Shown: positions 9,269-45,957, counted from the first letter of the stretch. The stretch is DNA of 46,594 nucleotides from Minisyncoccota bacterium (GCA_020057185.1 JAGVGK010000045.1:1-46594); one strand, 5' to 3'. Program-made: numbers and translations. Notes: generated by a model not told the origin, from the sequence alone.

Positions 9269-9364
9269 TTTTTCAACTTATACCGTACTTACACGATCGG
9301 AGATGAATGGAATAATTTAGAATTTAATACAAAAATTATTTATTCAGGTATAATTGAGGGCACA

Positions 9365-10504
9365 ATGACCCGCCATATATTTTTCGCTGGGTTCTCACTT
9401 ACGCTTAGCGCCGCGCTCACTTATTATGTCAACTCCTCTTTCCTCGAGAGCCTCGTGGGAGAAAAGAAGATTGGTTTGATCTACGCGCTCTCGGCATTTA
9501 CCACCCTAATAATGATTCTCTTTGTCCCGTCGCTAGGACGAAGTTACGGCCTACTAAAACCAATCCGCTGGTTTGGACTCATCTTCTTCGGCAGTATTCT
9601 CACGCTAGCGGTTAGTCAGACGCCCATTGTGCAAATCCTTGCTTTCGTCGCCATCCACGCAATGGTAGTTTCTTTAGGCTTGTGGCTCGACCTTTATTTA
9701 GAAACCCTCTCTTCAGACAGCCGGACGGGGCGGATCCGAGGCGGGTATCTCACCGCCATCAATACTGCCGTGCTTATCTCACCCTACTTAAGTGGCACCA
9801 TCTTGGGACACTTCGGTAATTCTGGGGCTGATTATCGAATAATCTACGGGCTTTCTTGTCTAGCCACCCTGCCTTTCCTATATCAAATATTTTTTAAGCT
9901 CGCCCCTCAACCACTTCCTGCTACCATTTTTGGCTTACGGACTAAACTCCGCGACCGTAATCTGCGCAAAATTTTGGCCCTCGATTTCTTGCTCAATCTT
10001 TTCTACTTTTTTATGGTTATTTATCTCCCGCTTCACCTCATCCAAACGATCGGCTTCTCGTGGCAAAATGTTGGTTTAATTTTCACGATCATGCTTCTGC
10101 CATTTGTCTTAATTGAATATCCGCTTGGTTGGCTGGCGGATCAAAAATTTGGCGAGAAAGAAATTTTGAGCATCGGACTCGTTATCATTGCCATCTCCAC
10201 CATTCCCCTTGCTTTCTTAACTAGTCAAAGTTTGGCCGTCTGGGCACTCCTTCTCTTCGCCACCCGCGTTGGCGCCGCCACGATTGAATCAATGAAGGAA
10301 ACTTATTTATTTAAAAAAGTGACCGGTGGTGATATTGGCATCATCAGCTTGTCGCGACTAATGATTCCCTCGGCTTATCTCATCGGCTCCCTCGGGAGCA
10401 TCATCTTCCTGCTTTTCTTCCCCACCCCCTATCTCTTCCTCCTTCTTAGCGTCCTTCTTCTTCTCGGCCTCTCCTTCTCGCTCACGCTCGAAGATACGAG
10501 ATAA
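9365..10504 (+). CDS. MFS transporter (ATG at 9365 preferred)
   Basis: About 12 hydrophobic helices, GWLADQKFGEK MFS-type loop motif; TATAAT shortly upstream. Confidence 0.85.
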   Translation: MTRHIFFAGFSLTLSAALTYYVNSSFLESLVGEKKIGLIYALSAFTTLIMILFVPSLGRSYGLLKPIRWFGLIFFGSILTLAVSQTPIVQILAFVAIHAMVVSLGLWLDLYLETLSSDSRTGRIRGGYLTAINTAVLISPYLSGTILGHFGNSGADYRIIYGLSCLATLPFLYQIFFKLAPQPLPATIFGLRTKLRDRNLRKILALDFLLNLFYFFMVIYLPLHLIQTIGFSWQNVGLIFTIMLLPFVLIEYPLGWLADQKFGEKEILSIGLVIIAISTIPLAFLTSQSLAVWALLLFATRVGAATIESMKETYLFKKVTGGDIGIISLSRLMIPSAYLIGSLGSIIFLLFFPTPYLFLLLSVLLLLGLSFSLTLEDTR

Positions 10505-10528
10505 AGAAAGAATATGTGGATAAATAGG

Positions 10529-10621
10529 TTGACTTCCGATCCCGCTTTTGCTATACATAAAAGATTCTCACGAAAAAGACCCTTATGCGGTTCCGTCCGT
10601 ATCGGGGGCTTTTTCTTTTTT
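10529..10621 (+). ncRNA. candidate small RNA or empty expression cassette (promoter directly followed by terminator)
   Basis: TTGACT-N17-TATACA (10529-10557), then hairpin 10573-10614 and T-run; no ORF in between. Confidence 0.4.
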
Positions 10622-10736
10622 ACCGTTTACTGGATTTGCAAAATCGCCCTTTGCATAAACCAAGTTAAGAAATCAATATGATAAATAGCGCACGGTCGTG
10701 AATTATTTAGCATATCGCTTGAAAAATAAAAAGAGA

Positions 10737-10774
10737 TAAAAAAAGCGGGGTCGTTGGTTTGACGATCCCCGCTT
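10737..10774 (-). terminator. intrinsic terminator of ORF 10812-11255
   Basis: aagcggggtcgt...acgatccccgctt inverted repeat; A-run on the + strand gives the U-tract. Confidence 0.7.
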
Positions 10775-10811
10775 GGATACTTTGTCCAACACCGAGTGTT
10801 GGACATTTTCC

Positions 10812-11255
10812 TCACGCCACTTTTTTCTCTTTGAGATTCCAGCTCCGCAACATCCTCTGGCGAATCATCTTCGGCCGACTTTGTGAAGCATCAAGTGAAT
10901 TTCCATCAGCCGCGACGACTATATCATGAAAAAGGGTGGGTTCAAGCCCAAGCCATTCTCGACAAAGAGTAATGGCAAACAAAGAAGAGTTTGAGTATAC
11001 GGTCTTATGCTTCTTCTTTGCTTCTATTTCTCCGGCAAGATAGAGGGCAGTAATAGGACAACAATAGTAACGAACTAAGCGGGGTCTCCGATCTCGATAA
11101 GATCTAGGATAACGATGCCTCGGTCCGTAAAAACGGATCACTTGATGATCAAGGAACGGCCTCCACCTTTTTCTACCTTCTTTCGTCAAAACACGAAGGG
11201 CTCGGAAAAAACCGTCCAAATCCATCTTCTTGCTTGTCTTATCTCGTGACCTCAT
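10812..11255 (-). CDS. basic hypothetical protein (147 aa)
   Basis: AGAAGGGAG SD, TTGACA-N16-TATGAT promoter overlapping the helicase stop, own terminator. Confidence 0.65.
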   Translation of the reverse strand: MRSRDKTSKKMDLDGFFRALRVLTKEGRKRWRPFLDHQVIRFYGPRHRYPRSYRDRRPRLVRYYCCPITALYLAGEIEAKKKHKTVYSNSSLFAITLCREWLGLEPTLFHDIVVAADGNSLDASQSRPKMIRQRMLRSWNLKEKKVA

Positions 11256-11332
11256 CGGTCATCTCCCTTCTGAATTCTGGTTAAAGTTCAAGGTCCAAAC
11301 TATTTTTAATCATAGCCATCATTTATCTTTTG

Positions 11333-14311
11333 TCAACTTTTTTGCGACATCGCCCAGAGGGTGCAGAATTGGCAATCGGGTTGGTGACAACCGCGGTCGA
11401 GAAATTTGAGCGAGAGAATCTCGCTCGCGACTTGGCTAATCGTCACCGCGAGCGCTTCGGTGTCTTCATGAGTCACCGTAAAACACTCCCGCCGATATTT
11501 ATTATTTGTCGGTTCGAGAAAATCTAACATCCCCTCGACCATTTTATATTTCCCATTATCCCAACGATCAAGCAGAAGTTTATAGAAAACAAGTTGGCGC
11601 CGATAGTCATCCGTCTTGCGCGGGCGACCGGTTTTATAATCCACGATGCGCACGGTGGTCTCATCCAGCGGTTCAATTTTATCAAGCTGACCAGTCAAAC
11701 GGAGGCGTTGGCTCTGATGGCGGGAAACTGGATCAAGCAACACTCCACGAATCGAGAGCTCGTTGACCAGTGGCGTCACAAAAGTTTTTCGATAGTGATG
11801 ATAATAACCAGTCAATGCTTTCGTCCCTCGTTCTAAGACAAGTTTCTGATCTAAAACTGATAATGGTTCGCAGGCTAAATGAGTTTGGAAAGATTTGAGA
11901 AGTAAATTTTTTCCAGACTTTTTATTTTTGCGATAAGCTTCGAAAAAATCAAACAACGCGCCGTGCATCGCCGTCCCGTAAATTAGACGACGATCTTTAA
12001 CTTTAACCAACCGCAAAAGATTTTGGAAATAATAGCGGAGCGGACAGCGCAGATAATTATTAAGCCCCGTCGCCGAGAGTCCTTGCCGATGGAAAAGTTG
12101 GCGCAGATATTCGCGATGGCGGAGACCCAAACCGCGTTGTGGGCGAGGCAAGAAATCGTGGCGGGCAACTTTTTCTTCGATCGCCGGTAAATATTCCAGT
12201 AAACTTTTATCAATCTCTTCAATAAACTGACTGGGCAATTGCCGACGATCATTATCGCCCCGTTCCGAATAACTAATCGTCACGCCGTGTCGCGCCCGCG
12301 TCAGTGCCACATAGAAAAGTCGCCGTTCATCCTCTTCGCGATCATCAATCACGAGTGGCAGAGTGACGCCCCGAGTTGGCAAGAGAAAAAGATTATGTCG
12401 CCGGCGATTACCGAAATGACCGTCATAAGCTTTGATGAGATAAACATAATCCCATTCGAGCCCCTTGGCGCGATGAACCGTGGAAACTTGAATCCCATTC
12501 AATCCAATGGTGGTTGGCTTGCCGAGCGACGCGCCGTGAGTTGTGAGCGTCGCCAAATGTTCGAGAAATTGTTCAAGCGAATATTTCGGCTGTGTGGCAA
12601 CTAATGACTTCAACTCATCAAAGAAACTATGCAGACGACTTAATTTCTCCACCGCTTGCGGGTGTTTGAGTAGGGCCGTAAGGAAACCGGACTCGTTCAC
12701 CACCGCACCGAAAAGTTCTGGGAGATTCTGATTCCGGCTCATTTTCTGCCAGCGTTCGAGCGATTGATAAAACTGATAAATAATCGCGGGCTGTTTCAGC
12801 CCCAGCCGTTTCAAATTCTTGAAATCGCGAATTAGCCAATAGAGATTCATCCGTTTCGTTCGCACTTCTTCGCTCAAACGATAAAGATCGAGCGCCTCAA
12901 GACCGAAAAAATCGAAATGAAAAATAGTGATTAGATATTGATCATCGCCGAAATAGTGAATCGCCTTGAACAGCGTGATAAGTTTTTGAATATCAATGTC
13001 CGTCAGCACATCGGAATTCGTCGCCACTTGATAGGGCAAATTAGCGCGCTCTAATTCTTCAATGATCGCCGTCGCATCGCGATTGTCGCGATAAAGAATG
13101 GCTAATTCGGCTGGTGGCGTCCCCTGTTTAATCCGTGATTTTAATTCGCCAATAAGAAAGTCAAGTTCGTAAGTCGCATCGGGCGCGGTATAAATTCTAA
13201 TTAGTTCTTTATTTTTTATCGGCTGATTTCGCGCTTTGGCCAATAGTTTAACTCGACTAGCTTCGGGAATTGACTGACTGGTAAGAATTACACTGCGCGC
13301 GGCGTCGAGAATTGCCTGCGTCGAACGATAATTGTCCGTCAAGGTAATCAAACGGGCCCGCGGATACAAGCGACGAAAATAATTGAAGTTATCCAACGAC
13401 GCGCCTTGAAATTGAAAAATCGCCTGCTTGTCGTCACCAACAATAAAAATGTTTGGCGACTCGTGGAAACTGGCGAGTAATTCGAGCAAACGATTCTGGG
13501 ATTGATTAGCGTCTTGATGTTCATCCGCCAAAAGATATTGATATTCTTCTTGCAACGACAAACGGAAATCTTCATCTTGCTCGACCACCCGAATCACTTC
13601 CATCACCATATCGCTGAAGTCATAAAGCTTTTTTTCTTTCAACGCTATTTCGTAACGACGATACAGAATTCCCAACTCGCGATTTTTGAAAAGTTGAGTT
13701 TGCTTCGAATGATACTTCCCGCGAATTTTACCAGCATACTTTCCTTTCTCGTGTCGAAGATCGGAAATATTTTCAAACTCGGTAATCATTCGATTAACAA
13801 TTAAAGTGAAATCCCGCGGTGAAAGATTTTCCTTTTTCAATCGCTCAATCGCCTGCAACGCCGAGGTGAGATAATGATAGGGATCATTCCACGGCTTGAG
13901 GAAAGCGAGCCGACTCTGATTGATGACGCCTTCCATAATTTTCAGCTGATCCACTTGATTGGCCGGTCGCGCTCCGACGATACTCGGAAAATGTTCGGGA
14001 TAACGATTAATCAGTTCATTGCAAAAACCGTGGAAGGTGTGAATCGCCACGCGATAAGCCCGACTGCCGATGATCTCCACCAGTCGCTCGCGCATCGAGT
14101 GCACGCCAGAATTGGTGAAGGTTAAGGCGAGAATACTATCCGGACTCGTGTCAGTGAGACGCAAGATGTTGGCAATGCGTAGCGTCAGCACTTGCGTTTT
14201 CCCCGTCCCCGGTCCCGCCACGACCATCACCGGTCCGTCAATTGTGTCGACGACCTCCCGCTGGGCGAGATTGAGTTGCTTATATAGTGCCTTGAATTTG
14301 GTCGATGTCAT
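11333..14311 (-). CDS. UvrD/PcrA-family ATP-dependent helicase with C-terminal PD-(D/E)XK nuclease domain
   Basis: AGPGTGKT, DEHQD, VGDDKQAIF, NYRS, STVHRAKGLE, ERRLFYVALTRA; C-terminal GQLDKIE...IVDYKTG and Cys cluster. Confidence 0.92.
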   Translation of the reverse strand: MTSTKFKALYKQLNLAQREVVDTIDGPVMVVAGPGTGKTQVLTLRIANILRLTDTSPDSILALTFTNSGVHSMRERLVEIIGSRAYRVAIHTFHGFCNELINRYPEHFPSIVGARPANQVDQLKIMEGVINQSRLAFLKPWNDPYHYLTSALQAIERLKKENLSPRDFTLIVNRMITEFENISDLRHEKGKYAGKIRGKYHSKQTQLFKNRELGILYRRYEIALKEKKLYDFSDMVMEVIRVVEQDEDFRLSLQEEYQYLLADEHQDANQSQNRLLELLASFHESPNIFIVGDDKQAIFQFQGASLDNFNYFRRLYPRARLITLTDNYRSTQAILDAARSVILTSQSIPEASRVKLLAKARNQPIKNKELIRIYTAPDATYELDFLIGELKSRIKQGTPPAELAILYRDNRDATAIIEELERANLPYQVATNSDVLTDIDIQKLITLFKAIHYFGDDQYLITIFHFDFFGLEALDLYRLSEEVRTKRMNLYWLIRDFKNLKRLGLKQPAIIYQFYQSLERWQKMSRNQNLPELFGAVVNESGFLTALLKHPQAVEKLSRLHSFFDELKSLVATQPKYSLEQFLEHLATLTTHGASLGKPTTIGLNGIQVSTVHRAKGLEWDYVYLIKAYDGHFGNRRRHNLFLLPTRGVTLPLVIDDREEDERRLFYVALTRARHGVTISYSERGDNDRRQLPSQFIEEIDKSLLEYLPAIEEKVARHDFLPRPQRGLGLRHREYLRQLFHRQGLSATGLNNYLRCPLRYYFQNLLRLVKVKDRRLIYGTAMHGALFDFFEAYRKNKKSGKNLLLKSFQTHLACEPLSVLDQKLVLERGTKALTGYYHHYRKTFVTPLVNELSIRGVLLDPVSRHQSQRLRLTGQLDKIEPLDETTVRIVDYKTGRPRKTDDYRRQLVFYKLLLDRWDNGKYKMVEGMLDFLEPTNNKYRRECFTVTHEDTEALAVTISQVASEILSLKFLDRGCHQPDCQFCTLWAMSQKS

Positions 14312-14339
14312 GCTCCCGATTATATGCTACAATCAAAAA

Positions 14340-14792
14340 ATGCTCCACCAACAAATTAAAGAGGATGTGAAGAAGGCGATGCTGGAAAAGAATCCGCTGA
14401 AGTTGAATACGATTCGTGGGCTGGTCGCCGCTTGTACGAATGAATTAGTCGCGACCAAACGAAAACCGGATGTAATGTTGAAAGATAATGAAGTGATAGC
14501 GGTCATCCGTCGAGGCATGAAGCAACGACAAGATTCGATTGAACAATTCACCGCCGGTGGGCGGAAGGATTTAGTTAAACAAGAAACGACCGAATTGGAA
14601 ATTCTAAAAACTTATCTTCCCCCCGAACTCTCGATTAAAGTAATTGAAAAATCCGTCCGCGCGAAAATGGCGGAATTAAAAATCAAGGATAAAAAAGACA
14701 TCGGCAAACTCACCGGCGCCGTGATGAAAGACTTGAAAGGCGAAGCCGACGGCACGACCGTCAAGAAAGTGATTGAGAGTTTGCTGGGATAA
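14340..14792 (+). CDS. GatB/YqeY domain protein
   Basis: KQRQDSIEQF..GGR.DL, YLPPELS, GEADG motifs; ATG at 14340. Confidence 0.9.
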   Translation: MLHQQIKEDVKKAMLEKNPLKLNTIRGLVAACTNELVATKRKPDVMLKDNEVIAVIRRGMKQRQDSIEQFTAGGRKDLVKQETTELEILKTYLPPELSIKVIEKSVRAKMAELKIKDKKDIGKLTGAVMKDLKGEADGTTVKKVIESLLG

Positions 14793-14794
14793 AA

Positions 14795-15598
14795 TTAATC
14801 AATCTCGTAGCGGAGAGTGACAGTGACGATGACATCTTGCGAGCCGGGTTCGATGGTTGGGGCGGGCAGAGGTGCATCCATCGCCGTGCTATCAAGCGAC
14901 ATCACTCGAGCGTTATAATACTTCTCATTGTAAGATTGTTCGCCTTCATCAATCCCGAGCAAGCGGCCAACGCTGAAACCGCCGGCCTTCGCGACAAGCT
15001 TCGCCTTCTCTCGCGCTTGAGCAATCGCCTTGGCACGCGCTTCATTCTCAACGGCGACGGGATCATCAATGGTGAAATTAAGTTGCGAAACATTATTCGC
15101 CCCCTTCTCGACGACACCCGAGAGAATCGCGCCAATCTTGGCGAAGTCTCGCACTTTCACCGCAACACTTTGCGTCACCGTATAACCGACAATCGAAGGC
15201 GGCGGACAAACAGTGTTTTTACCAAGCGAACGGTAAAGCACGGGGGCGCAATAAGTATTCTGATAACGGGGCGCAAGATTATACTGCTCGGTTTTGATAT
15301 CTTTATCGGCGACCCCTTGATCTTTCAAGAAAGAATTAATTTTGTTGCCACGCTCGGTGTTGTCATGATTAAGCGTCGCAATATCCGTCCCCCCTTCATT
15401 AATAATACTAAACGAAAACATTGCCACATCCGGTCGCGCCACCACTTTGCCCTCACCAGTCACTGCGAAACTGCGGAAAGCCGAGGGCTGGATCGAACGA
15501 GAATAAGTCCGCGCCAAACTCCAAATCGAACCGCCAACGAGAAGCACGGCAATAATAATCGCCCAACCGAGAAATATCTTTATTTTATCTGAAGCCAT
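14795..15598 (-). CDS. SIMPL (DUF541) domain protein
   Basis: VTGEGKVVARPDVA, GANNVSQLNF, IEPGSQDV motifs; N-terminal TM. Confidence 0.9.
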   Translation of the reverse strand: MASDKIKIFLGWAIIIAVLLVGGSIWSLARTYSRSIQPSAFRSFAVTGEGKVVARPDVAMFSFSIINEGGTDIATLNHDNTERGNKINSFLKDQGVADKDIKTEQYNLAPRYQNTYCAPVLYRSLGKNTVCPPPSIVGYTVTQSVAVKVRDFAKIGAILSGVVEKGANNVSQLNFTIDDPVAVENEARAKAIAQAREKAKLVAKAGGFSVGRLLGIDEGEQSYNEKYYNARVMSLDSTAMDAPLPAPTIEPGSQDVIVTVTLRYEID

Positions 15599-15649
15599 AT
15601 AAAATAATATTTATTAAGTTAATAATATCTCATCATACGCTAAAACCAA

Positions 15650-16537
15650 CTAATTTACCACCCCTAGCGCCACCATTTCTTGGCCCGGGCGAGAGATGGT
15701 CTCATCGGTGTAGCCGAGTACTATCGCGTTTTGGTTGGCAAATAATTCTTCCCCGCCTTCAATCCGAGCAATCAAATCCCCTTTTTTAATCACCTGCCCG
15801 GGCTCAACCAACATTTGGATGGGACCGGAAATTATCGGCTTGGGTTCATCGGAATAATTAAATATTTTACCCGTCGATCCAACACTCGATGTTGGAGTAT
15901 CATTAACATCGAGTGTTTTATTTTCGGCAATTAAACCAAAATGACAAAGAATCCGCAAAATTGCGTTAACACCAATTCTGACATTCTTCTCATCCACAAT
16001 ATAAGCGCCGCCGAGTTCGAGTGTTAGCGCGGGAATACCGATTTTTGTTAAACTGCCAGAGAGTGTCTGATTTAAAGTTTTGCTAATTTCTTGCACTGTC
16101 ACCAAGCCAGCCGAAAGAGCCATTCGGCTCAACCGAGCATGAAAATCGGGCAACATACTATTCCGATCATCGATTAGAGTGTAGGGAATAGAATTAATCC
16201 AATCATTATGAAGATCGAGAACCAAATCCGGTTTCGTTTCGATAATTGTTTGCCAAACATTGTGTACAATTTTTTGACCTAATGTGCCATCAACTTGTCC
16301 GGGAAACAAACGATTAAGATCCTCACCGGTCTCCGGCAATTCTCTAACTTTTTTATCCGCGCCGGTCTCGTTGACTAGGGGCAAAGCGTGTAAAGAACCT
16401 TTAACCAATTCCACCTTTTCTAATTCGGCAAATAATTTTTTGATTACGGCACCACCACCCGGTTCATCACCGTGAAGCGTGCCTGTGAGCCAAACCACTG
16501 GTCCATCAACCTTAGATTTTTTTTCTAGATAGGTCAT
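15650..16537 (-). CDS. succinylglutamate desuccinylase/aspartoacylase-family (M14-like) hydrolase
   Basis: HGDE, DLNRLFPG, LDLH, TLELG motifs. Confidence 0.88.
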   Translation of the reverse strand: MTYLEKKSKVDGPVVWLTGTLHGDEPGGGAVIKKLFAELEKVELVKGSLHALPLVNETGADKKVRELPETGEDLNRLFPGQVDGTLGQKIVHNVWQTIIETKPDLVLDLHNDWINSIPYTLIDDRNSMLPDFHARLSRMALSAGLVTVQEISKTLNQTLSGSLTKIGIPALTLELGGAYIVDEKNVRIGVNAILRILCHFGLIAENKTLDVNDTPTSSVGSTGKIFNYSDEPKPIISGPIQMLVEPGQVIKKGDLIARIEGGEELFANQNAIVLGYTDETISRPGQEMVALGVVN

Positions 16538-17555: not shown

Positions 17556-17564
17556 TTTAATAAT

Positions 17565-18064: not shown

Positions 18065-18134
18065 TTGACTTTTAAACCCAGTTATGATAACCTTATGGGC
18101 AGAATCGTGAGGTAAGTCAGAATCGCGTGATTCT
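18065..18134 (+). promoter_or_regulatory. promoter and structured leader, copy 1 (homologous to 26364-26439)
   Basis: TTGACT-N17-TAACCT then ggcagaatcgt...atcgcgtgattct; leader 32/37 identical to copy 2. Confidence 0.7.
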
Positions 18135-18181
18135 CAGCTGAACCTTAAATTGAACGAGAAACGAAAACAAGGAGACCGAAA

Positions 18182-18388
18182 ATGTATGAGGTACAGAGAC
18201 GCATTCTCATTCTCAACGCCATGGAAGTGCAAATACACGCGTTGAGGGGAATCGTAGCGGCGGCAAATGTAGTTGTTGATGCACCAGGGACAACAAAATT
18301 TGAAGAGGAGGAATCATTCGCGCGGGATCTGATCATGGTAGGAAGGGGTGTTGTTAGTATGCTCCAGAAATGTGAGGCCCAAAAATAG
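18182..18388 (+). CDS. 68-aa orphan protein
   Basis: AAGGAG SD; bracketed by a promoter/leader and terminator that are duplicated at 26.4-26.7 kb. Confidence 0.65.
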   Translation: MYEVQRRILILNAMEVQIHALRGIVAAANVVVDAPGTTKFEEEESFARDLIMVGRGVVSMLQKCEAQK

Positions 18389-18414
18389 CGAAAACCCCCA
18401 GTGTTGACACAAAC

Positions 18415-18454
18415 AAAGCGCACGGCCTTCATGGGTAGGTGCGCTTTTTTCTTT
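18415..18454 (+). terminator. intrinsic terminator, copy 1
   Basis: aaagcgcac...gtgcgctttttt; 35/40 identical to 26706-26745. Confidence 0.8.
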
Positions 18455-18537
18455 GCCAAATTTCCCAAAGTTTGTCTATACCATAAAAAACACGGTCGTA
18501 GAATTTATGAGATACTAAAAAATCAAGTGGTTTTAAG

Positions 18538-26353: not shown

Positions 26354-26363
26354 TCTTACGGGG

Positions 26364-26439
26364 TTGACTTTCAGACCCAATTATAATAACCTAATGGGCA
26401 GAGGCAGAATCGTAAGGCAAGTCGAGATCGCGTGATTCT
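26364..26439 (+). promoter_or_regulatory. promoter and structured leader, copy 2
   Basis: TTGACT-N17-TAACCT and leader homologous to 18065-18134, with a duplicated ggcaga. Confidence 0.7.
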
Positions 26440-26478
26440 TGACGAGATTTTGAAGGAAATTAAAAAAGGAGAATGGGC

Positions 26479-26679
26479 ATGTTACTTGTGGGTCTTCTGG
26501 TGGTTTCGATTGGTTCTTCCATGCTTGGCGCCAGTATTGAACATGATAGTCTAATGAAACGATACCCTCATTTCGACTGGAGGGAAGGTGCTGGGTATAG
26601 CCCATTTATGTTTTGGTTCGGAGTACTCGGTATTTTTGCGGGAGTATTTGTTGCCTTCATTCCTCAATTGTTTAACTAA
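26479..26679 (+). CDS. small two-TM orphan membrane protein (start 26479 or 26473)
   Basis: AAAGGAG SD 7 nt before ATG 26479; two hydrophobic segments. Confidence 0.65.
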   Translation: MLLVGLLVVSIGSSMLGASIEHDSLMKRYPHFDWREGAGYSPFMFWFGVLGIFAGVFVAFIPQLFN

Positions 26680-26705
26680 CTGGAAGTGGACGAGTGGCTT
26701 AGTAT

Positions 26706-26745
26706 AAAGCGCACGACCTTCGCGGGTCCGTGCGCTTTTTTCTTT
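26706..26745 (+). terminator. intrinsic terminator, copy 2
   Basis: aaagcgcacg...cgtgcgctttttt. Confidence 0.8.
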
Positions 26746-26831
26746 ACTCTTTAATTTCTACTCTTAAACTATTTACGGTCGTAAAAATCTTAAGAGTTAA
26801 CTTTTTATTGATTATAGTATAGGATAACTGA

Positions 26832-37155: not shown

Positions 37156-37175
37156 ATCCGTGTTCAAGCCAAAAA

Positions 37176-37853: not shown

Positions 37854-37969
37854 ACTACTAATAATAGCAAAAATTATCCCTCTGTTCCAGCTTCATTAAT
37901 ATCAAAACACATTTTGGTTAAACATTCATCTGAATATCCGTTTTTGCTTTATTCTCCTATTCGCGCGAA

Positions 37970-38383: not shown

Positions 38384-38398
38384 ATATTTTCTATCATA

Positions 38399-39703
38399 CT
38401 AAACATTCGAGCCGGCGACAAAGCCGGTGGTCCAACAAAGTTGGAGACTATAACCACCAGACGGTCGAGCGATATTCAAAATATCGCCGATAAGATAAAG
38501 TCTGGGGACAATCCGAGATTCCATCGTTTTGAAATTAACTTCCTCGAGGGCTACGCCTCCCGCCGAGATAATCGCTTTATTCGCCCCCAAGAGACCCTTA
38601 ACTCGAAGGGGTATGGCTTTAAGAAGAGCCACCAGTTTGAGCCGATCCGCCCGACGAACGCTATGATTCGGCGTGGCACCATCAATCCCCGCGAGATCAA
38701 GCATCGGCTCAACGAGGGCGGAAGGTATTAATTTCCCGAGCACATTCTTAATTTTTTTATTTGATTCCACTGTAAGCAAAGTTTGTAATTTATCCCGAAG
38801 CGCCACAGTATCAAGTTTGGGGAAAAGATCGAGGTGAATCGTGACTTGACTGTGCGTCAGAAGCTCACCGATCGCCTGGCTCAAATTAAGAATCGTCGGA
38901 CCACTCACGCCGAAATGAGTAAAGAGGAGTTTACCCAAGTGGGTGCTCTGCTTCTGCCCATCCGCAAACACGGTTAGCTTGATATCCGACAAAGTCACCC
39001 CACCGAGTCGCTTGACCCACGGATCGGCGAGTGCGAGAGGCACGAGTGCGAAATTATTCTCAACGACAGTATGACCGAGTCGCTTCAGCCACTCGAAACC
39101 TTCACCGGTCGAACCCGTCTCGGGGTGCGATGTTCCACCGGTGGCCACTACGCAAGCTCGAGCCGCGATCTTCTCTCCCCCCTTAAGAGTAAGACTAAAC
39201 TGTCCCAGCGCGACATTTTTCTCGATCTTCGAAACTTCACTTTTTGTCTTTACTGTCACTCCGCCCGCTTTCAAAAATTGAACCAGCACATCCCAAACCG
39301 ATTGCGCTCGATTAGACTTCGGAAACATTCGGCCGTCATTCTCTTCTTTCAAGACGAGACCACGCTGGGCAAAAAAATCCAACACCTCTCTCACCGCGAA
39401 CTGCGCGAACGCCGAGAAGAGAAATTGCCCGCTCTGACGATACTGCGCGAGCATTGTCCGCACCGCGGGTTTATTATTCGTGAGATTACATCGGCCACCG
39501 CCGGTGATGAGAAGTTTCCGCCCAAGCGTTTCATTCTTCTCCAAGAGGAGAACGGCGCGCCCGCGCTCACCGGCCCGACCCGCCGCCATCATCCCCGCCG
39601 GACCACCACCAATCACCACGACCTCCCAAACAGCGCGCGAAAAATTCGGCAAAGAAAAACCACTCGCCAAGCCATCTCGGGAGCGGTTTTCCTTATATAC
39701 CAT
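38399..39703 (-). CDS. HI0933/YhiN-family flavoprotein (start codon uncertain)
   Basis: IGGGPAG, KLLITGGGRCNLTN, LLFTHFGVSGP, GGYSLQ. Confidence 0.9.
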   Translation of the reverse strand: MVYKENRSRDGLASGFSLPNFSRAVWEVVVIGGGPAGMMAAGRAGERGRAVLLLEKNETLGRKLLITGGGRCNLTNNKPAVRTMLAQYRQSGQFLFSAFAQFAVREVLDFFAQRGLVLKEENDGRMFPKSNRAQSVWDVLVQFLKAGGVTVKTKSEVSKIEKNVALGQFSLTLKGGEKIAARACVVATGGTSHPETGSTGEGFEWLKRLGHTVVENNFALVPLALADPWVKRLGGVTLSDIKLTVFADGQKQSTHLGKLLFTHFGVSGPTILNLSQAIGELLTHSQVTIHLDLFPKLDTVALRDKLQTLLTVESNKKIKNVLGKLIPSALVEPMLDLAGIDGATPNHSVRRADRLKLVALLKAIPLRVKGLLGANKAIISAGGVALEEVNFKTMESRIVPRLYLIGDILNIARPSGGYSLQLCWTTGFVAGSNV

Positions 39704-39713
39704 TCGACTAAAG

Positions 39714-39911
39714 TTAGGCGCGTGTGACATTCGTCGCGGCGGGGCCTTTTTCCCCATTGACGACATCAAAGGTCACGGCATCGCCCTCCTTGAGTTCCTC
39801 GAAAGTGACACCCTTCACTTCGGAAGAGTGAAAGAACAGGTCCTTCTCTTCGCCCTCGCGAGAGATGAAGCCGAATCCTTTGGTGGTCAGGGTCTTGATT
39901 GTTCCGTTCAT
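39714..39911 (-). CDS. cold-shock domain protein
   Basis: KGFGFI (RNP1), DLFFH (RNP2), GEKGPAA. Confidence 0.95.
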   Translation of the reverse strand: MNGTIKTLTTKGFGFISREGEEKDLFFHSSEVKGVTFEELKEGDAVTFDVVNGEKGPAATNVTRA

Positions 39912-39963
39912 ATGATTATGACTTAACTATTATTAACTGCTTATAATCGAACACTCTACTCTA

Positions 39964-40842
39964 TCATAGTCCATAATATTTGAACAGGGCCTTAACCCCG
40001 GCAAGGTTCTCGGCCCATTCAATCGCCTGATGAGTTTTAAGTTCGACCGTGAGCGCTGGAATGCCGATAGACGCCAGCCAGCCCTCCGCGTCGCCGGTCA
40101 CATCATAAGCGTCAAACGATTTGACCGCTGGATAACCTGACGCCTGCGCGTAGGCCGTCATAATCGCCAGTGTCCCCGGTAGAATATCGCCTTCGCACTT
40201 CGACGCATATACCGCGCCGGCTTGACTGTGCCAAAAGATTACCGCCGACGACTTGTTGGTTAACACAAAATCGCGAATTGCCACGGCTTCCGGTTCGGAG
40301 AACGGCGCCGAGCCGGCCTTAACCGACTGACCACGCCACATACTCTGCGGTTGCCACTGACAATCGAAGTTGCGATTGAGATCGACCGTGTGCGCGTTGA
40401 ATCGGCCGGGCGACTGATCGCCGGTCGTCGGCACATCCGCCAGCACGAAGCGACCTTCTTTACCAATTACTTTATACACGCCGTCGGGATTCGCCGACGG
40501 GATGACAGTGACCTTCAAATTGTCGGGAATGACCGCCGGATTATCTCGGAGATAATCCATAAATTTATACGCGAGCAGAACACTGTTCCACTCATAACCG
40601 CCGTGAATCCCGCCGATAAACACCAATTGAGTTTTTCCTTTTCCATAAGTGGTCGCCGAAATCGCGCGACCTTCCACCGATTGACCAATCACGCTCGTCT
40701 CCGGACCAAGCTTTTTTACTTTTACCACTGGTGTAATCACGACTGGCAGAGGCTCTGGTTCAACTTTATTTTGCCAGTTAATAAACAAATACAAACCACT
40801 CACCAACAAAACGATGATGAGAACGACGACAAAGAATCGCAT
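39964..40842 (-). CDS. membrane-anchored M14 zinc carboxypeptidase (paralog B)
   Basis: GGIHGGYE, NPDG, VDLNRNF, SEPE, WHS, TVEL. Confidence 0.9.
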   Translation of the reverse strand: MRFFVVVLIIVLLVSGLYLFINWQNKVEPEPLPVVITPVVKVKKLGPETSVIGQSVEGRAISATTYGKGKTQLVFIGGIHGGYEWNSVLLAYKFMDYLRDNPAVIPDNLKVTVIPSANPDGVYKVIGKEGRFVLADVPTTGDQSPGRFNAHTVDLNRNFDCQWQPQSMWRGQSVKAGSAPFSEPEAVAIRDFVLTNKSSAVIFWHSQAGAVYASKCEGDILPGTLAIMTAYAQASGYPAVKSFDAYDVTGDAEGWLASIGIPALTVELKTHQAIEWAENLAGVKALFKYYGL

Positions 40843-41780
40843 TATTTTGCGTAGTACTCCAGCAGAGCTTTTATTCCCGCCAGGTTTTTATCCCATTCCA
40901 CATCATCATGTGTCGCAAGCAGAACGCTGATCGCCGGGATGTTATTTTTGGCTAACCAATTTACCAGATCACCAGTGATGTCATAGAAATTAAATTTTTC
41001 GTAGGCGGGATAACCGGAAGCTTGAGCATAAGTGTTAGTGATAGTTTTCGTTTCCGGCAAAATACCGCTTTGACAACTGGAGGAGAAAACTCCGCCGGCA
41101 GCACTGTACCAAGCCACCACCGCATTCGGTCTTAGGGCCTCAATATAATTTTTAAGCGCCAAACTTTCGGGTTCAGAAAATACGACACTCCCGCCACTCA
41201 CGGTTTTATTTTGCCACTTACTCGTGGCCTGCCAATCACAATCGAAGTTGCGGTTGAGATCTACTTTGTTGGCGTTGAAGCGACCGGCGGTCACGACCGC
41301 GATCGACGGCGATACATCAGCTTTAGTAAATTGACTCGTGGTGGTACCGACCACCTTATTTAGTCCATCAGGATTTAGCACCGGAATAACCGTCACGGCA
41401 ACTTGAGCCGGAATCGTCTCTAGATTACTCTTCAAATAATCTATCAACTTGTAAGCGAGAAGGGCAGTATTCCACGAATAGCCACCATGGATCCCGCCGA
41501 TAAACAGAATTTTTGTCGCGCCCGTGCCGTAGTTATAAGCCGTGATCGCGCGCCCCTCCACTGATTGACCAATCACTATTTCACCAGTCTGATTGTCAAT
41601 TAGTGTAGTCGGCGGCGTACTGCTAGCGAGCGGGACGACTGGCGGTGGAGTCGTGTCGATTACTTCAGGTGGTGTCGCGTTCGGTAAAACCACCGAATTA
41701 TTAGACGACCACTGGGTCAACCAATACGCGCCTAGACCAATCAGAATCACTATTACCAAGACAATAATCAGATTTTTCAT
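40842..41780 (-). CDS. membrane-anchored M14 carboxypeptidase homolog (paralog A) with degenerate catalytic motifs
   Basis: GGIHGGYS, NPDG, VDLNRNF, SEPE, WYS, SVLL. Confidence 0.85.
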   Translation of the reverse strand: MKNLIIVLVIVILIGLGAYWLTQWSSNNSVVLPNATPPEVIDTTPPPVVPLASSTPPTTLIDNQTGEIVIGQSVEGRAITAYNYGTGATKILFIGGIHGGYSWNTALLAYKLIDYLKSNLETIPAQVAVTVIPVLNPDGLNKVVGTTTSQFTKADVSPSIAVVTAGRFNANKVDLNRNFDCDWQATSKWQNKTVSGGSVVFSEPESLALKNYIEALRPNAVVAWYSAAGGVFSSSCQSGILPETKTITNTYAQASGYPAYEKFNFYDITGDLVNWLAKNNIPAISVLLATHDDVEWDKNLAGIKALLEYYAK

Positions 41781-41855
41781 ATTTTTTATAAAATTACCTA
41801 TTAATTACTTACTAATGCCTAATTTAGTGTAGCAAAATTTTCTTGACAACCCTAA

Positions 41856-41926
41856 CTGCCGGCCAGGGACTCGAACCCCAATACCATCCTCCAGAGGGAT
41901 GTGTCCTACCATTAGACGAGCCGGCA
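41856..41926 (-). tRNA. tRNA-Gln (anticodon CTG)
   Basis: tgccggc acceptor stem, catcc-ctCTGga-ggatg anticodon arm, ggttcgagtcc T-arm; CCA not encoded. Confidence 0.95.
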
Positions 41927-42032
41927 AAGGCACGCCCCCCACTCTAGCAAAAATAATATCGTTGTGCTATAAGAAGGAAGGAGTTGTTTAATTAGTTCTT
42001 CAGAAACCAGAAACTCCAGAAAGGAGAAACGA

Positions 42033-42437
42033 ATGATTACCGAGGTTAGTTGGGCCATAATTGGAAAGCGTGAAATATTGATCACTTGGGAAGTGGGCGC
42101 TAGGGGGTGGTCATTGCCCGGGGGGATAGCCAACCCATGTGAAAGCTCACAAGCCGCCTTGCTTCGCGGGTTAAACGAACGATTCGTTGATTTGCGGGTA
42201 AATGGTTCGCCAGTGGTTTGGCAACGTTTCGAACCTTCCACTGGTAATCCTAAGAGAATCACGATCTTTCTGGTGGAAACTGGTGAGGTGGTAATACCCA
42301 ATCCAAAGAAAGTTGCTGATAGCCGGTGGATCTATCCCATCACCGCCAAGCAACATAAACTTCCTGATGAAGCAGTCGAAGCACTTCATCAGCTCCAAGA
42401 ATTACGCCGTCACCATCCGCCAAAAATTCTCGAGTGA
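42033..42437 (+). CDS. NUDIX-fold protein with a degenerate Nudix box
   Basis: WSLPGG-X5-E-X7-RGLNER; AGAAAGGAG SD; own terminator. Confidence 0.6.
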   Translation: MITEVSWAIIGKREILITWEVGARGWSLPGGIANPCESSQAALLRGLNERFVDLRVNGSPVVWQRFEPSTGNPKRITIFLVETGEVVIPNPKKVADSRWIYPITAKQHKLPDEAVEALHQLQELRRHHPPKILE

Positions 42438-42452
42438 GAATTGAGCTACCAG

Positions 42453-42500
42453 AGACCCGCCACTTCGCCGATAGGCGAACGAGCGGGTCTTTTATTTTTT
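42453..42500 (+). terminator. intrinsic terminator between the NUDIX-like gene and convergent pyrG
   Basis: agacccgc...ttcgcc-gata-ggcgaa...gcgggtct followed by a T-run. Confidence 0.7.
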
Positions 42501-44159
42501 AGCACCGGCCGATTTTAAGAAAGCAACAAAAAGTGGGTGCGGGTGCAATGGTGTAGATTTGAATTCGGGATGAAACTGGGTACCGAGAAAGAAAGGGTGT
42601 TGGGCTTTCGGCAATTCCACAATTTCCATCAGTCGGCCGTCGGGCGAACGACCGGAAAAAACGAGCCCAGCTTTTTCTAGCGTCACCACATAATCTGGAT
42701 TAACTTCATAACGATGGCGGTGGCGTTCATGAATAAGCTTGTAGCCGTTAGCTTGTAGCTTGTAGCTGGAGTCGACATACGCATCAAATGCGGTCGTACC
42801 GTGCTTCAACTCACAAGGGTAAGCGCCTAAACGCATCGTCCCGCCATAATCAGCTTGGGCGATCTTCTCTCGCTGTTCCGGTAAAACATCAATCACTGGC
42901 GCGGGCGTCTTCGGATTAATTTCGGTCGTGTGCGCTCGCTTAAGTCCCGCCACATGGCGTGCATATTCCACCACCGCGAGTTGCATACCGTAACAAAGTC
43001 CAAAAAATGGAATTCCCTTTTCGCGCGCGAATTTAATCACCGCAATTTTCCCCTCCACGCCTCGCTCGCCGAAACCGCCCGGGACAAGCAAACCGTCATA
43101 ATTTTTTAATTCGGCCAACTTATCTATTTTTTTGTCCTCGTAGTCCCCCGCGTCCAACCAATCGAGAATCAACTTCCGCCCCAGAATACCCGCGGCGTGC
43201 TTGAGCGATTCAATAATCGAGATATAGACATCCGAGAGAACATAGTCACCGGTTTTGAAATATTTTCCCACCACGCCGATTCTCAATTCTTTGGTTGAGG
43301 TTTTCATTCGTTCCACCATTTGTCGCCAATCCTTCAGATCCTCTTGACGCGGACGCAAGCGCAGAAGTTTCAAAACCGTCGTGCTCAAACCATCCTTCTC
43401 GAAGTTGAGCGGAATGTCGTAAATATTATCCACATCCGGCGCGGAAATAATATTCTTCACTGGCACATTACAAGAGAAAGCAAGTTTGTCTTTGCGCTTC
43501 TGATCAAGCGGTCGATCGCTCCGCGCGATAATAATATCGGGATGAATACCATAAGAATTAATCGCCCGCACCGCGTATTGCGTCGGCTTGGTCTTCATCT
43601 CGCCGACCTTGTTGGGAATCGGCAGATAACTAACGAGGACGAAAAGAACATCGTTCGGGTGCTTCAACTTGAGTACGCGCGCCGCTTCGAAAAAGATGCT
43701 GTTTTGATATTCACCCACCGTTCCGCCGATTTCAATAATCGAAATATCCGCCTTCGTCTTGTCGGTCGAGCGCTTGATTCGGCGGAGAATTTCCTCCGAG
43801 ATATACGGTACGGGATCAACACACTTCCCGCCGTAGCCGAGTGCGCGTTCCTTATCAATCACATATTTATAAACCATCCCCGAGGTCATATAGTTTTCGG
43901 CCGGGACACTCACATCGAGAAAGCGTTCGTAATTGCCCATATCCTGATCACATTCGAGGCCCGAATCCAAAACAAAAACTTCCCCGTGTTCAATCGGGTT
44001 CATTGTCCCGGCATCCACATTGAGATACGGATCAATCTTGAGTGGATTAATCTTAAAACCGCGCGCCGAGAGAATCTTACCCAGCGACGAAGTGGTGACG
44101 CCCTTGCCCACTCCGGACATCACCCCTCCAATTACGAAAATGTATTTGTGGCGGGTCAC
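42492..44159 (-). CDS. pyrG: CTP synthase
   Basis: GGVMSGVGKG, KTKPTQ, GLCYGMQ, ERHRHRYEVN, QFHPE. Confidence 0.97.
   Translation of the reverse strand: MTRHKYIFVIGGVMSGVGKGVTTSSLGKILSARGFKINPLKIDPYLNVDAGTMNPIEHGEVFVLDSGLECDQDMGNYERFLDVSVPAENYMTSGMVYKYVIDKERALGYGGKCVDPVPYISEEILRRIKRSTDKTKADISIIEIGGTVGEYQNSIFFEAARVLKLKHPNDVLFVLVSYLPIPNKVGEMKTKPTQYAVRAINSYGIHPDIIIARSDRPLDQKRKDKLAFSCNVPVKNIISAPDVDNIYDIPLNFEKDGLSTTVLKLLRLRPRQEDLKDWRQMVERMKTSTKELRIGVVGKYFKTGDYVLSDVYISIIESLKHAAGILGRKLILDWLDAGDYEDKKIDKLAELKNYDGLLVPGGFGERGVEGKIAVIKFAREKGIPFFGLCYGMQLAVVEYARHVAGLKRAHTTEINPKTPAPVIDVLPEQREKIAQADYGGTMRLGAYPCELKHGTTAFDAYVDSSYKLQANGYKLIHERHRHRYEVNPDYVVTLEKAGLVFSGRSPDGRLMEIVELPKAQHPFFLGTQFHPEFKSTPLHPHPLFVAFLKSAGAKK
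42735..42769. repeat. five degenerate TAGCTTG heptamers inside pyrG
   Basis: aagcttg tagccgt tagcttg tagcttg tagctgg. Confidence 0.75.
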
Positions 44160-44169
44160 AGTAATAAAA

Positions 44170-45087
44170 TCAAATCCTTAGATGTTTACGGATGGCTAAG
44201 ACACTCGCCAAGACACTGATAAAAAGTCCAGAAACAATCAAGACCAAGGTCAAGAAGGTGAAATGCTCGAGATAGTAAGTCGCCAAATTAATACTCGCCG
44301 CCACGCCGGCCGTGGCGTTATGAAGCCAGATCGCCGTGGGGTAAAGAAGAAATAGGGCGAGCAAAGAAGCAAAGAGTCCGGCGATCAAACCTTCAACAAT
44401 GAAGGGTCCGCGGATATAGGGATTGTTGGCGCCAACCAAACGCATCACCGAAATTTCTTCCCGCGAGACATAGATCGCGAGCGAGACGGTATTGAAAGTG
44501 ACGATTAGTGAAATGAAAATGAGGAAGAGGGCGATCGCCAAACTCACTCGCTGGGTGGTGTCAATAATGGCCGAGAGCGCATCGACGCTCGTCTTCTTGA
44601 AGTTGATTTGGTAAATAATACTTTGCCCGCCCGCTGCTAGCGCGCTATCATCATAAAGAAAACTGGCAATGCTCTCATACTGGGACGGGTCGGTCGCTTC
44701 GATATTAAGTCGCGCGCCGAGCGGATTACCAACCTCTTGAAGCGACTGCATAATCAAAGCGTTGTCTTGATTGCGAGTTTTGAAATCATTAAACTCTTCC
44801 TCCCGCGACCGATAAGTGACTTGCTTGACTCCCGGCCGAGCTTGAAGCGTTTTTTGGAAAGCGAGGACTGCCTCTTCCGTCGCCGTGGGTTGGAAAGAGA
44901 CGCTAATATCCACCTTGGCTTTAATCTCGTCGAGTGAAGCGGAGAGGAAGGCTTGCCCTAGAAGTAGCCCGCCAATGGTAAAGAGTGTCACCGTCAAGAC
45001 AATCACTGACGAGAGCGACACCAAGCCACTGCGCCAAAAATTGACGAACCCCGATTTGATAATGCGTTTAATGTTAGCGAGCCACAT
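44170..45087 (-). CDS. ftsX: cell division permease FtsX
   Basis: 4 TM; EISVMRLVGANNPYIRGPFIVEG. Confidence 0.9.
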   Translation of the reverse strand: MWLANIKRIIKSGFVNFWRSGLVSLSSVIVLTVTLFTIGGLLLGQAFLSASLDEIKAKVDISVSFQPTATEEAVLAFQKTLQARPGVKQVTYRSREEEFNDFKTRNQDNALIMQSLQEVGNPLGARLNIEATDPSQYESIASFLYDDSALAAGGQSIIYQINFKKTSVDALSAIIDTTQRVSLAIALFLIFISLIVTFNTVSLAIYVSREEISVMRLVGANNPYIRGPFIVEGLIAGLFASLLALFLLYPTAIWLHNATAGVAASINLATYYLEHFTFLTLVLIVSGLFISVLASVLAIRKHLRI

Positions 45088-45102
45088 ATTTAGATTATCT
45101 AA

Positions 45103-45711
45103 TCATTTTATAAACCTGAAGGTGGAAAGGATCTCGGGGAACGGGGAAGAATTCACATCCTTAATTACCAGCATTGACGACCCATTCAATCGGACAGCAA
45201 TCACATGACCGGGTCCGTTGTAACCACTGTATTGACTATCTACCTCGATAGCCGGTTTCCCTGCAAAAGTAATGTCTTTTACAATAATTTGACCCGACTG
45301 CCATTCGGGAATGTTTATATATTTTTCAATCCATTCACGAGATGCCGTAGTCGTAGCATTTACAGAAAAAGACAACAGGATGGGTTCACAACACAGAGCA
45401 AGATCTTCGTTTTTGGCGTCTAGGGCAATATGAACTTCGTCAGAATCAGAGGGGGCTGGTATTAATTTATTTCTGTTCACATTAGAGATTTTGTTGTCCT
45501 TGTCAAAAGTAAAAGCGATGCGTTCCGCCGGATACTTAAACTCAAACCCATATTTATCATTTCGATAAGTTTTCCAGTTTTCTATTCCCTCTCCTTCGGG
45601 GAGGGCGGAGGGTGGGGTGTTTTTGTTTTTCCACACCGCATACCCGCCACCAACTAAAACCGCGAGGATGATAATGAGAGCGATGGGCGAGAAACCTTTA
45701 TTTTTTAACAT
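45103..45711 (-). CDS. membrane-anchored exported protein with WKTYRNDKYGFEFKYP and ILSTFRF terminal motifs (PsbP-like fold suspected)
   Basis: KGFSPI pilin-like N-terminus plus TM; paralog at 45958-46494. Confidence 0.8.
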   Translation of the reverse strand: MLKNKGFSPIALIIILAVLVGGGYAVWKNKNTPPSALPEGEGIENWKTYRNDKYGFEFKYPAERIAFTFDKDNKISNVNRNKLIPAPSDSDEVHIALDAKNEDLALCCEPILLSFSVNATTTASREWIEKYINIPEWQSGQIIVKDITFAGKPAIEVDSQYSGYNGPGHVIAVRLNGSSMLVIKDVNSSPFPEILSTFRFIK

Positions 45712-45757
45712 AGATTAATTATAGCATACAGACACTTATCCCCCAACCACTCCCTTT

Positions 45758-45860
45758 ATTGTCATCAGCGACTATACTGAAAAGTACAAACGACTTCGGT
45801 CCTCCCCGCAAGGGGTAAAATGAGAATCAGGCGGGTAATTGCCTGATTTTTATTTTATTT
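45758..45860 (+). ncRNA. candidate structured ncRNA with its own terminator
   Basis: tact-GAAA-agta, gac-TTCG-gtc and cccc-GCAA-gggg hairpins in series, then aatcaggc...gcctgatt and T-run. Confidence 0.55.
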
Positions 45861-45957
45861 TAAAATATACCATAACATCACGATCGTGTTATTGCAGTAT
45901 AATTTCACCACGCAAGATTCTGAAAATCTTTTTGCATAAGAACAAAAGTGTCCTTAT

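Follow-up and report, generated by a model that had tools for sequence, protein, structure and literature searches.

Dispersed quasi-palindromes in a Minisyncoccota genome as probable cognate sites of a family of small PaaX-like proteins

Recombination sites such as loxP, FRT and dif consist of inverted recombinase-binding arms around a variable crossover centre of 6-8 bp. In the repressor PaaX (8a39; Jannaschia 3l09; Rv0674 3kfw), which responds to phenylacetyl-CoA and controls the paa genes, a winged helix is followed by a Cas2-like middle domain, and the solved chain has 305 amino acids (aa). PaaX of Escherichia coli recognizes the operator TGATTC-N27-GAATCA and acts at its own promoter, Px, as a repressor that hinders RNA polymerase; no structure of PaaX on DNA is known (PMC9493321). 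Repetitive extragenic palindromes (REP) and the bacterial interspersed mosaic elements (BIME) built from them accompany a single-copy gene, the REP-associated tyrosine transposase (RAYT), which is delimited by its own palindromes; genes and repeats pair class by class, extragenic copies and mosaic arrays occur, and abundance is species-specific (PMC2817692). Here we describe a family of ~46-bp quasi-palindromes, five of which lie on a 46,594-nt contig of a Minisyncoccota bacterium (GCA_020057185.1, JAGVGK010000045.1:1-46594; hereafter the window), and a family of small PaaX-like proteins (mini-PaaX) of which, judging from the pairing of site classes with genes, they are very probably the cognate sites. 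The window is contig C12 of a 782,866-base genome (G000; 46 contigs, 46% G+C), and the main comparison was with a genome of the same genus, G004, in a copy short of at least one contig.

The system resembles each of these precedents in part. As in PaaX, a winged helix is predicted to precede a Cas2-like domain, and the site is a long palindrome in two parts with ~2.5 turns between them: the arms stand 24-26 bp apart, and the hexamers of the 39-bp PaaX operator are separated by N27 (PMC9493321). At ~185 aa, however, the mini-PaaX proteins have no C-terminal ligand domain. Also unlike PaaX, eight to ten paralogs occur per 0.8-Mb genome, each with private arms; the site has an invariant 8-bp centre; a site stands on either side of every mini-PaaX gene; orphan copies and mosaics are found past terminators; and there are no aromatic-catabolism genes nearby. 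All the features of REP/BIME and RAYT named above recur here, but the flanked gene is PaaX-like and encodes no HUH/Y1 transposase, its two flanking copies run in direct orientation, a GTAG head is missing, the hairpin potential is low, each class has 3-12 copies and not hundreds (REPs usually exceed 100 per genome; PMC2817692), and the units are syntenic between species. The arrangement of inverted arms on either side of an 8-bp centre, spanning 34 bp in class A, recalls loxP, FRT and dif; unlike those, the centre is invariant and the arms variable, and neither a dedicated recombinase nor rearrangement junctions accompany the sites. The second mini-PaaX domain has the fold of CRISPR Cas2, although Cas2 is a stand-alone protein of ~90 aa encoded beside cas1 and the array, whereas mini-PaaX is a two-domain protein with a winged helix, encoded away from the Cas1 match on contig C30.

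The five palindromes of the window had been noticed in a sequence-only reading, and a recount reproduced both their positions and their arm complementarity exactly: the centres fall between bases 9296/9297, 10695/10696, 18495/18496, 26778/26779 and 45883/45884 (each site is named here by the first of its two central bases), with 11/18, 15/19, 12/18, 15/18 and 15/21 complementary positions, respectively. The core ACGRTCGT is present in four of the five, that of 9296 ending in CGG, and at 9296, 18495 and 45883 the left arm has TATACC 13-19 bp from the centre; both details had been reported and are borne out. The enrichment over shuffled sequence proposed at the same time holds at two scales. In the window, ACGRTCGT has 13 matches on both strands (9 places) vs 3.3 expected, a number reached by 0/100 shuffles, although four of the nine places (485, 23051, 24610 and the 25062/14754 type) are armless chance matches in coding DNA. 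Genome-wide, 42 sites vs 1.7 in Markov shuffles combine a perfect ACGRYCGT with at least 5/8 complementary positions 13-20 bp out from the centre, and a stricter filter (at least 7/8) leaves 19 sites vs 0, 0, 0, 0 and 1.

A census seeded with the gene-flanking copies described below kept 57 places with at least 29/46 identities; five with scores of 29-30 and no centre (C3 22913, C28 19693, C29 22244, C31 41193 and C36 455) were dropped and C32 9854 was added, giving 53 curated ~46-bp quasi-palindromes, all of them outside real genes. The census found no sixth member within the window. The sites have the centre ACGRYCGT in common, with AT, GT/AC or GC as the central R-Y pair, and fall into eight arm classes (A, 12 sites; B, 8; C, 6; D, 9; E, 7; F, 4; G, 3; H, 4). 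On each side, the class arms occupy the positions 13-20 bp from the centre, and the class-specific half-sites of 20-22 bp include the 8-nt stretch between arm and centre. In the window, 9296 and 45883 belong to class B, 10695 to D, 18495 to E and 26778 to F. Sites of different classes also form arrays (D-A-H, E-A, F-E-A and B-A), with 39-68 bp between centres.

In seven of the classes, a direct pair of same-class sites 583-672 bp apart encloses a single gene, and the seven enclosed genes (179-212 codons as called) are paralogous. The flanking copies are thus direct repeats of an internally quasi-symmetric site, with centres 23-52 nt from the start and 21-51 nt from the stop of the gene. A profile search of the six-frame translation of the genome returned eight paralogs, of which the eighth directly follows a class-A site and is truncated by the end of contig C2. 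The same search found no paralog on C12, and the five sites of the window are therefore orphan copies. Proteins B and C are 73% identical and the arms of both classes read TATACC; we take this pair as co-variation of protein and site, similar proteins having similar arms. Among the functions proposed at the outset, a binding site for a dimeric protein is the one that we favour, given the one-to-one pairing of arm classes with putative winged-helix paralogs. Upstream of the paralogs themselves, a TAnnnT hexamer, read by eye and with no test against chance, ends 5-14 nt before the ATG in 17/17 own-gene upstream regions (8 in G000 and 9 in G004); in classes B, B2, D, E, G and I (e.g., TGGTATAAT) the hexamer is part of the gene-proximal arm, and in classes A, F, H and C it comes just past the arm. 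The paralog mRNAs would accordingly have little or no leader, with the promoter lying under the site; such an overlap of the upstream copy with a near-leaderless promoter suggests autorepression of the PaaX kind.

The assignment of the proteins rests on profile and fold comparisons. All three paralogs tested match Pfam PaaX_M (PF20803, the Cas2-like middle domain) with 66.8-71.8 bits vs a cut-off of 24 (1e-18 to 5e-20), while the PaaX equivalog TIGR02277 (39.7 and 25.3 bits vs a cut-off of 264.55) is not reached. In the paralogs tested there is no match to the ligand domain PaaX_C (PF08223), only ~45 residues following the Cas2-like domain, nor to PF07848 at E 0.01. Pfam Cas2 scores are below the cut-off, and NCBIfam cas2 matches only residues 107-145 (28.7 vs 24.5 bits); PADLOC Cas2 models match all seven members over ~36-40 positions. 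Because this partial cas2 match lies just above its cut-off, these genes are labelled Cas2 in databases. For an AlphaFold2 model (predicted local distance difference test, 76), the best fold in the PDB is PaaX of E. coli W (8a39; E 1.4e-5, 186 columns), then 3l09 and 3kfw; the N-terminal half aligns to the winged helices of PadR, MarR and LmrR, and separate domain matches are to Cas2. A sequence search of the PDB gave no relevant match, hence the fold search. On this model, the paralogs are a winged helix joined to a Cas2-like PaaX middle domain, without the PaaX ligand domain. A homodimer prediction for the class-F paralog (7-row alignment) scored 0.30 against a mark of 0.42. The only Cas1 match in G000 (C30 30399-30740) is ~170 bp from a contig end, on a contig with no paralog, and a CRISPR-Cas locus may have been cut by the assembly at that end.

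The relatives available for comparison are few in number and themselves related. The class-A/F pattern occurs in 9/41 genomes (a count that includes G000), among them four of the five other genomes of the genus, and a reversed control gave 0 in all 41; G003 has 0 paralogs and 0 class-A/F sites. A pair of F sites ~620-640 bp apart recurs in G002, in G004 and, in another genus, in G024, and nine of the ten paralogs of G004 are flanked on both sides by sites of their own class. A wider survey, with one genome per species, found 460 related loci. Among the best 80 of these, to which all flank figures apply, a perfect ACGRYCGT lies within 140 bp upstream in 38, downstream in 41, on both sides in 36 and on either in 43. 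When the centre is ignored, the two flanks of 78 loci have a common 32-mer with a median of 26/32 matches (10th percentile 22.7), vs a median of 19/32 (90th percentile 20.5) for the flanks of mismatched loci, and other centres (CCGGTCGG, GCGGTCGC, CCGGCCGG and GCTATAGC) occur among them. In these other lineages of the candidate phyla radiation (CPR), the arms are private to each locus and common to its two copies, and the site-gene-site layout recurs across Parcubacteria.

Orphan copies tend to follow terminators, as the sequence-only reading had claimed for the window. There, a hairpin with a T-run ends 22-72 nt left of each of the five centres. Genome-wide, a hairpin with a T-run pointing at the site and ending within 120 nt accompanies 28/38 orphan sites, mostly at 22-53 nt (19/27 orphan loci in a hand count), and 6/15 own-gene copies, vs 34/246 control intergenic midpoints. 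With a stricter site definition in G004, the figures are 7/16 orphan sites, 4/11 own-gene copies and 48/337 controls. At the orphan loci that do not lie between convergent genes, a gene start is 24-153 nt away; the gene calls, here and for all gene neighborhoods of G000, are longest open reading frames (ORFs) and hence crude. Genes beside the sites include those for RNase J, RNase R, SMC, FtsZ, MreB, UvrB, BipA and several tRNA synthetases.

The flanks of 40/53 sites map collinearly to G004, where 19 of the 40 intervals hold a site, and the class agrees in 15 of these 19, plus one more confirmed separately. Between the two genomes, orthologous orphan sites agree at 76-93% over 46 bp, in most cases more closely than the non-coding DNA flanking them. 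Sites 9296, 10695 and 18495 have no counterpart in G004, and 45883 has no collinear flanks there. At the spot orthologous to 26778 (class F), G004 carries a class-B site that is 43/46 identical to 9296, core defect included; in G001 and G002, the two genes are just 24 and 17 bp apart. Synteny between G000 and G004 holds for units A, B, C, E, F and H. The D unit lies within a 1,115-bp segment missing from G004; since it occupies the same locus in G000, G002 and G005, its absence from G004 is read as a loss and not as a jump. Two class-D sites of G004, which has no D ortholog, are the least conserved (76%), with damaged core or arms, and matches to the D half-site number 18 in G000 (none with 2 mismatches) and 10 in G004 (8 with 2 mismatches), by a pattern that is derived from G000 and thus biased. 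D-type half-sites also occur in G001, where no close D ortholog turned up.

Several further differences between the genomes touch the units. To the left of the D unit, G000 (C5 6918-7326), G002 (L178 2333-2901) and G005 (L179 170-763) have different pieces, each a small ORF with its own terminator, bordered on the left by a conserved gene. The interval directly after uvrB holds a solo class-A site in G000 (C16 19980) and a whole class-I site-gene-site unit in G004 (C1 89232-90237); class I is absent from G000. The region of G004 orthologous to window 8972-11333 (C8 ~4800-11000, L010) contains a 5-kb insertion with a second MFS-type paralog and a C-terminal fragment of a 992-aa gene, a local duplication beside the place of 9296 and 10695. 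Homology between the duplicate C units of G004 ends at the outer site edges, which is not taken as evidence for a discrete mobile unit, since at 76% identity neutral flanks could no longer be recognized.

These observations suggest a mechanism in which a mini-PaaX dimer would sit on the dyad of the site, its two winged helices reading the class-specific arms ~13-20 bp from the centre, in the geometry of the E. coli PaaX operator, and its conserved Cas2-like dimer core lying over the invariant ACGRYCGT. The weak hairpin potential (below) leads us to take the sites as acting in the form of duplex DNA. At its own gene, the upstream copy would cover the promoter, with the -10 element in or just past the proximal arm and 5-14 nt before the ATG, so that binding would occlude RNA polymerase and result in autorepression. 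Orphan copies followed by a gene (about two thirds of the loci) would be operators through which the next promoter is repressed, and those between convergent genes would be roadblocks or insulators. Compared with the cognate relationship itself, we hold this combination (a dimer on duplex DNA, autorepression, and orphan copies as operators or roadblocks at unit boundaries) with less confidence, as the better supported reading of the sequence comparisons.

Several results weigh against it. Every paralog gene has a downstream copy, which would be superfluous for simple autorepression. Eight or nine of the 27 orphan loci, including 10695 and 18495 of the window, are in convergent gaps, which offer no promoter to control, and the genes flanking the sites have no common function, with 24/61 ORFs family-less and three encoding toxins of toxin-antitoxin systems. 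Some sites occur without a cognate gene in the same genome (a B2-type in G000, D-type sites and one G-type in G004). The counts of CACGRYCGTG, 29 in G000 and 24 in G004, compare with 1-10 in each of 25 further genomes of the family, and this excess (3-10 times) looks like a lineage-specific burst. Finally, the D-A(-H) mosaic is found at four unrelated loci of G000, with homology starting right after the T-run, and the variant seen at 9296 recurs at a non-orthologous place in G004; both indicate that sites have been copied as DNA modules and did not evolve where they stand.

The copying of modules is what the main alternative would explain, namely that the palindromes are selfish repeats of the REP/BIME kind, non-autonomous and copied through mini-PaaX in the part of RAYT or through RAYT-like HUH enzymes in trans, with regulation secondary; we consider this unlikely, if the strongest competitor. 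The delimitation of each gene by palindromes of its own class is as in RAYT/REP (PMC2817692), and the mosaic module, the 9296 variant, the class switch at the spot of 26778, the solo A site in place of a class-I unit downstream of uvrB, the extragenic placement beyond terminators and between convergent genes, and the burst in G000 and G004 are all in its favour, as are the position of 12/42 site loci within 900 bp of contig ends (10.6% expected, p 0.001) and eight Y1_Tnp (HUH) matches in the genome (C14 930-1385; C22 13767-14456; C24 7143-7844; C35 3339-4010; C2 173-724; C28 12196-12915; C1 26854-27531; C41 1375-1635), comprising a 151-aa IS200-type protein and seven RAYT-like ones (183-239 aa) with HFH and YIHLNP motifs. 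However, the check for a co-occurring HUH nuclease that the sequence-only reading had proposed showed none beside the sites: no Y1 gene lies within ~800 bp of any site, all being on other contigs than the sites or ~880 bp or more away. The low copy number per class, the direct orientation of the flanking copies and the absence of a GTAG-type head from the site strings have been noted above, and the hairpins are weak: as single-stranded DNA, the 53 sites fold with a median of -4.2 kcal/mol, z being below -2 in 18 and above -1 in 22, and those of the window with -1.3 to -5.6 kcal/mol (z 0.38, -1.25, 0.38, -2.12 and -0.73), so that the earlier proposal of a hairpin substrate also finds little support. 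Furthermore, the protein belongs to a repressor family in which the Cas2-like domain is the dimerisation module, six units are syntenic with G004, the D unit was lost from there without having jumped, and orthologous orphan sites are conserved. A variant of this idea, by analogy with RAYT and its REPIN elements, would have mini-PaaX and the palindromes form a vertically inherited replicator pair based on a non-HUH, Cas2-fold binder: sites, single or as a D-A-H mosaic, would be copied in a protein-dependent manner to new post-terminator places, the Cas2-like dimer on ACGRYCGT would nick or mark the centre, and the eight to ten private specificities per genome would represent competing or co-existing lineages and not a regulatory network. 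This we regard as a distinctly unlikely, speculative possibility.

The remaining explanations each leave more unaccounted for. That the palindromes are transcribed hairpins at mRNA ends, acting as stabilisers or auxiliary terminators and possibly bound by a Cas2-like RNA-binding or RNase module, appears very unlikely: sites do follow paralog stop codons as well as terminators, class D (site 10695) is a nearly complete 20-bp hairpin, and some fold-matched Cas2 and VapD proteins are RNases going by their titles, but it is the sequence and not the pairing that is kept (the 8 nt separating arm and centre are particular to each class and often cannot pair), for two of the five window sites 119 and 118 of 200 shuffles fold equally well or better, the T-run precedes the site instead of following it, and an N-terminal winged helix is typical of proteins that bind duplex DNA. 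Plain bidirectional promoters, in which two back-to-back -10 elements would produce the symmetry with no dedicated protein, had been put forward as an alternative from the start and now seem highly improbable. In classes B and E the arms have the sequence TGGTATAAT or TGGTATACT, and promoter-like matches overlap sites 9296, 26778 and 45883; to this extent the idea survives as a by-product, the proximal arm of classes B, D, E and G holding the -10-like hexamer of the paralog promoter. But the centre is more conserved than the arms, left and right arms co-vary by class, the arms of A, F, H and most other lineages are not -10-like, about a third of the orphan loci are convergent, and the one-to-one link with the paralog genes is left unexplained. 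The recombination or insertion site first proposed, whether of the lox/FRT/dif type (13-8-13) or attC-like and exchanging small gene cassettes, we consider the least credible. The class-A geometry (13 + 8 + 13 bp), the different pairings in which class-B half-site variants are found, and the small unrelated ORFs with their own terminators that differ between species beside sites (window 26354-26745 vs G004, and left of the D unit) would fit it. Against it, arms that vary by class around an invariant centre are the reverse of lox, FRT and dif, and the genome has one Phage_integrase-family gene, for a tyrosine recombinase (C30), and no serine recombinase or resolvase. Nor are synteny breakpoints, for which the sequence-only reading had proposed a test at the core, enriched at the sites: 16 of the 24 site intervals are collinear with G004, 4 are 'rearranged' and 4 lie at contig ends, vs 336, 53 and 23 site-free intervals, and all four 'rearranged' cases come from mis-assignment of D, G or H paralogs. 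Indels at the sites do not exceed in size those of other gaps of 60 bp or more (Mann-Whitney p 0.53), and the 1,115-bp indel of the D unit does not have site cores at both of its ends.

Coordinates of the sites and of the associated terminator-like features of the window are given in Table 1. Promoter-like matches lie inside site 9296 (CTTACA-17-AATAAT with TG) and, on the minus strand, inside 45883 (ATAACA-17-TATATT with TG; TATAAT in the right arm), while the right arm of 26778 is the first hexamer of a match, TTAAGA-17-TATAGT. Both half-sites of 10695 fit the D pattern with 0 mismatches, and terminator-like hairpins stand 72 nt left and 39 nt right of its centre; at 18495, the terminator ends 40 nt left of the centre.

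Table 1. Orphan quasi-palindromic sites of the window and adjoining terminator-like features.
Feature	Position	Strand	Remarks
Orphan class-B site 9296	9274..9319		one core defect, ACGA|TCGG; 33/46 identical to B-gene flanking site
Orphan class-D site 10695	10673..10718		convergent gap, between two facing terminators; 40/46 identical to D-gene flanking site
Orphan class-E site 18495	18473..18518		between terminator of small plus-strand unit and stop of BipA-like gene; 35/46 identical to E-gene flanking site
Orphan class-F site 26778	26756..26801		53 nt upstream of pseudouridine-synthase gene; 36/46 identical to F-gene flanking site
Orphan class-B site 45883	45861..45906		divergent-looking gap; 38/46 identical to B-gene flanking site
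Intrinsic-terminator-like hairpin and T-run	9231..9268	+	just before site 9296; T-run ends 25 nt from centre
Terminator-like hairpin and T-run of MFS-type gene	10591..10621	+	left of site 10695
Terminator-like hairpin and T-run of minus-strand gene 10812-11255	10737..10773	-	right of site 10695
Terminator of small unit 18065-18455	18418..18454	+	homologous to terminator at 26709, 87.5% identity over 40 nt
Terminator of small unit 26365-26745	26709..26745	+	just before site 26778; kept in G004
Hairpin with T-runs on both strands	45825..45861		left of site 45883; on minus strand, in leader of gene 45103-45711

The two small units 18065-18455 and 26365-26745 have a common promoter/leader (79% over 76 nt), containing ...ATGGGCAGA..ATCGT.AGG.AAGTC..GATCGCGTGATTCT, and enclose unrelated 68-aa ORFs, that of the first at 18182-18388 and that of the second, which is hydrophobic, at ~26473-26679; in G004, the same leader and terminator surround a third ORF, Cys-rich and of 83 aa. 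The units look like a cassette frame with exchangeable ORFs, and their leader is without an Rfam family match. In the window as a whole, Rfam returned only a tRNA-Gln, and none of the 'candidate RNAs' that the sequence-only reading had placed beside the sites reached the gathering score of any family. The terminators of the two units (GCGCACGRCC...GTGCGC) were considered as a general partner of the sites and rejected, G000 having only the two window copies. Likewise rejected was the idea that the small ORFs beside sites form families, as, paralogs aside, one pair alone shares 54 residues. A 107-aa ORF with a TTG start on the minus strand (window 18145-18468) has no family match and overlaps the plus-strand unit, and is probably not a gene. 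The hairpin in the stretch of ~170 nt from the minus-strand gene 45103-45711 to site 45883 (window 45712-45860) could, on the minus strand, be a leader or attenuator of that gene and not the terminator of a plus-strand RNA.

We found no description of the mini-PaaX family or its sites in a literature search that covered neither subscription journals nor supplements. The analysis supplies a census of orphan copies in one genome, their post-terminator placement, their mosaic arrays and a comparison within the genus, and shows that dispersed palindromes of a CPR genome can be linked with a cognate gene located on a different contig. In the prevailing view, ultra-small CPR bacteria have very few regulators; here ~1% of the genes of a 0.78-Mb genome would belong to one family of DNA binders. 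If the proposed relationship is true, these genomes would contain a ready-made set of orthogonal repressor-operator pairs and a natural series for the change of winged-helix specificity with the protein core and the site centre fixed, and the sites would provide a first means of studying how transcription units are delimited in CPR genomes.

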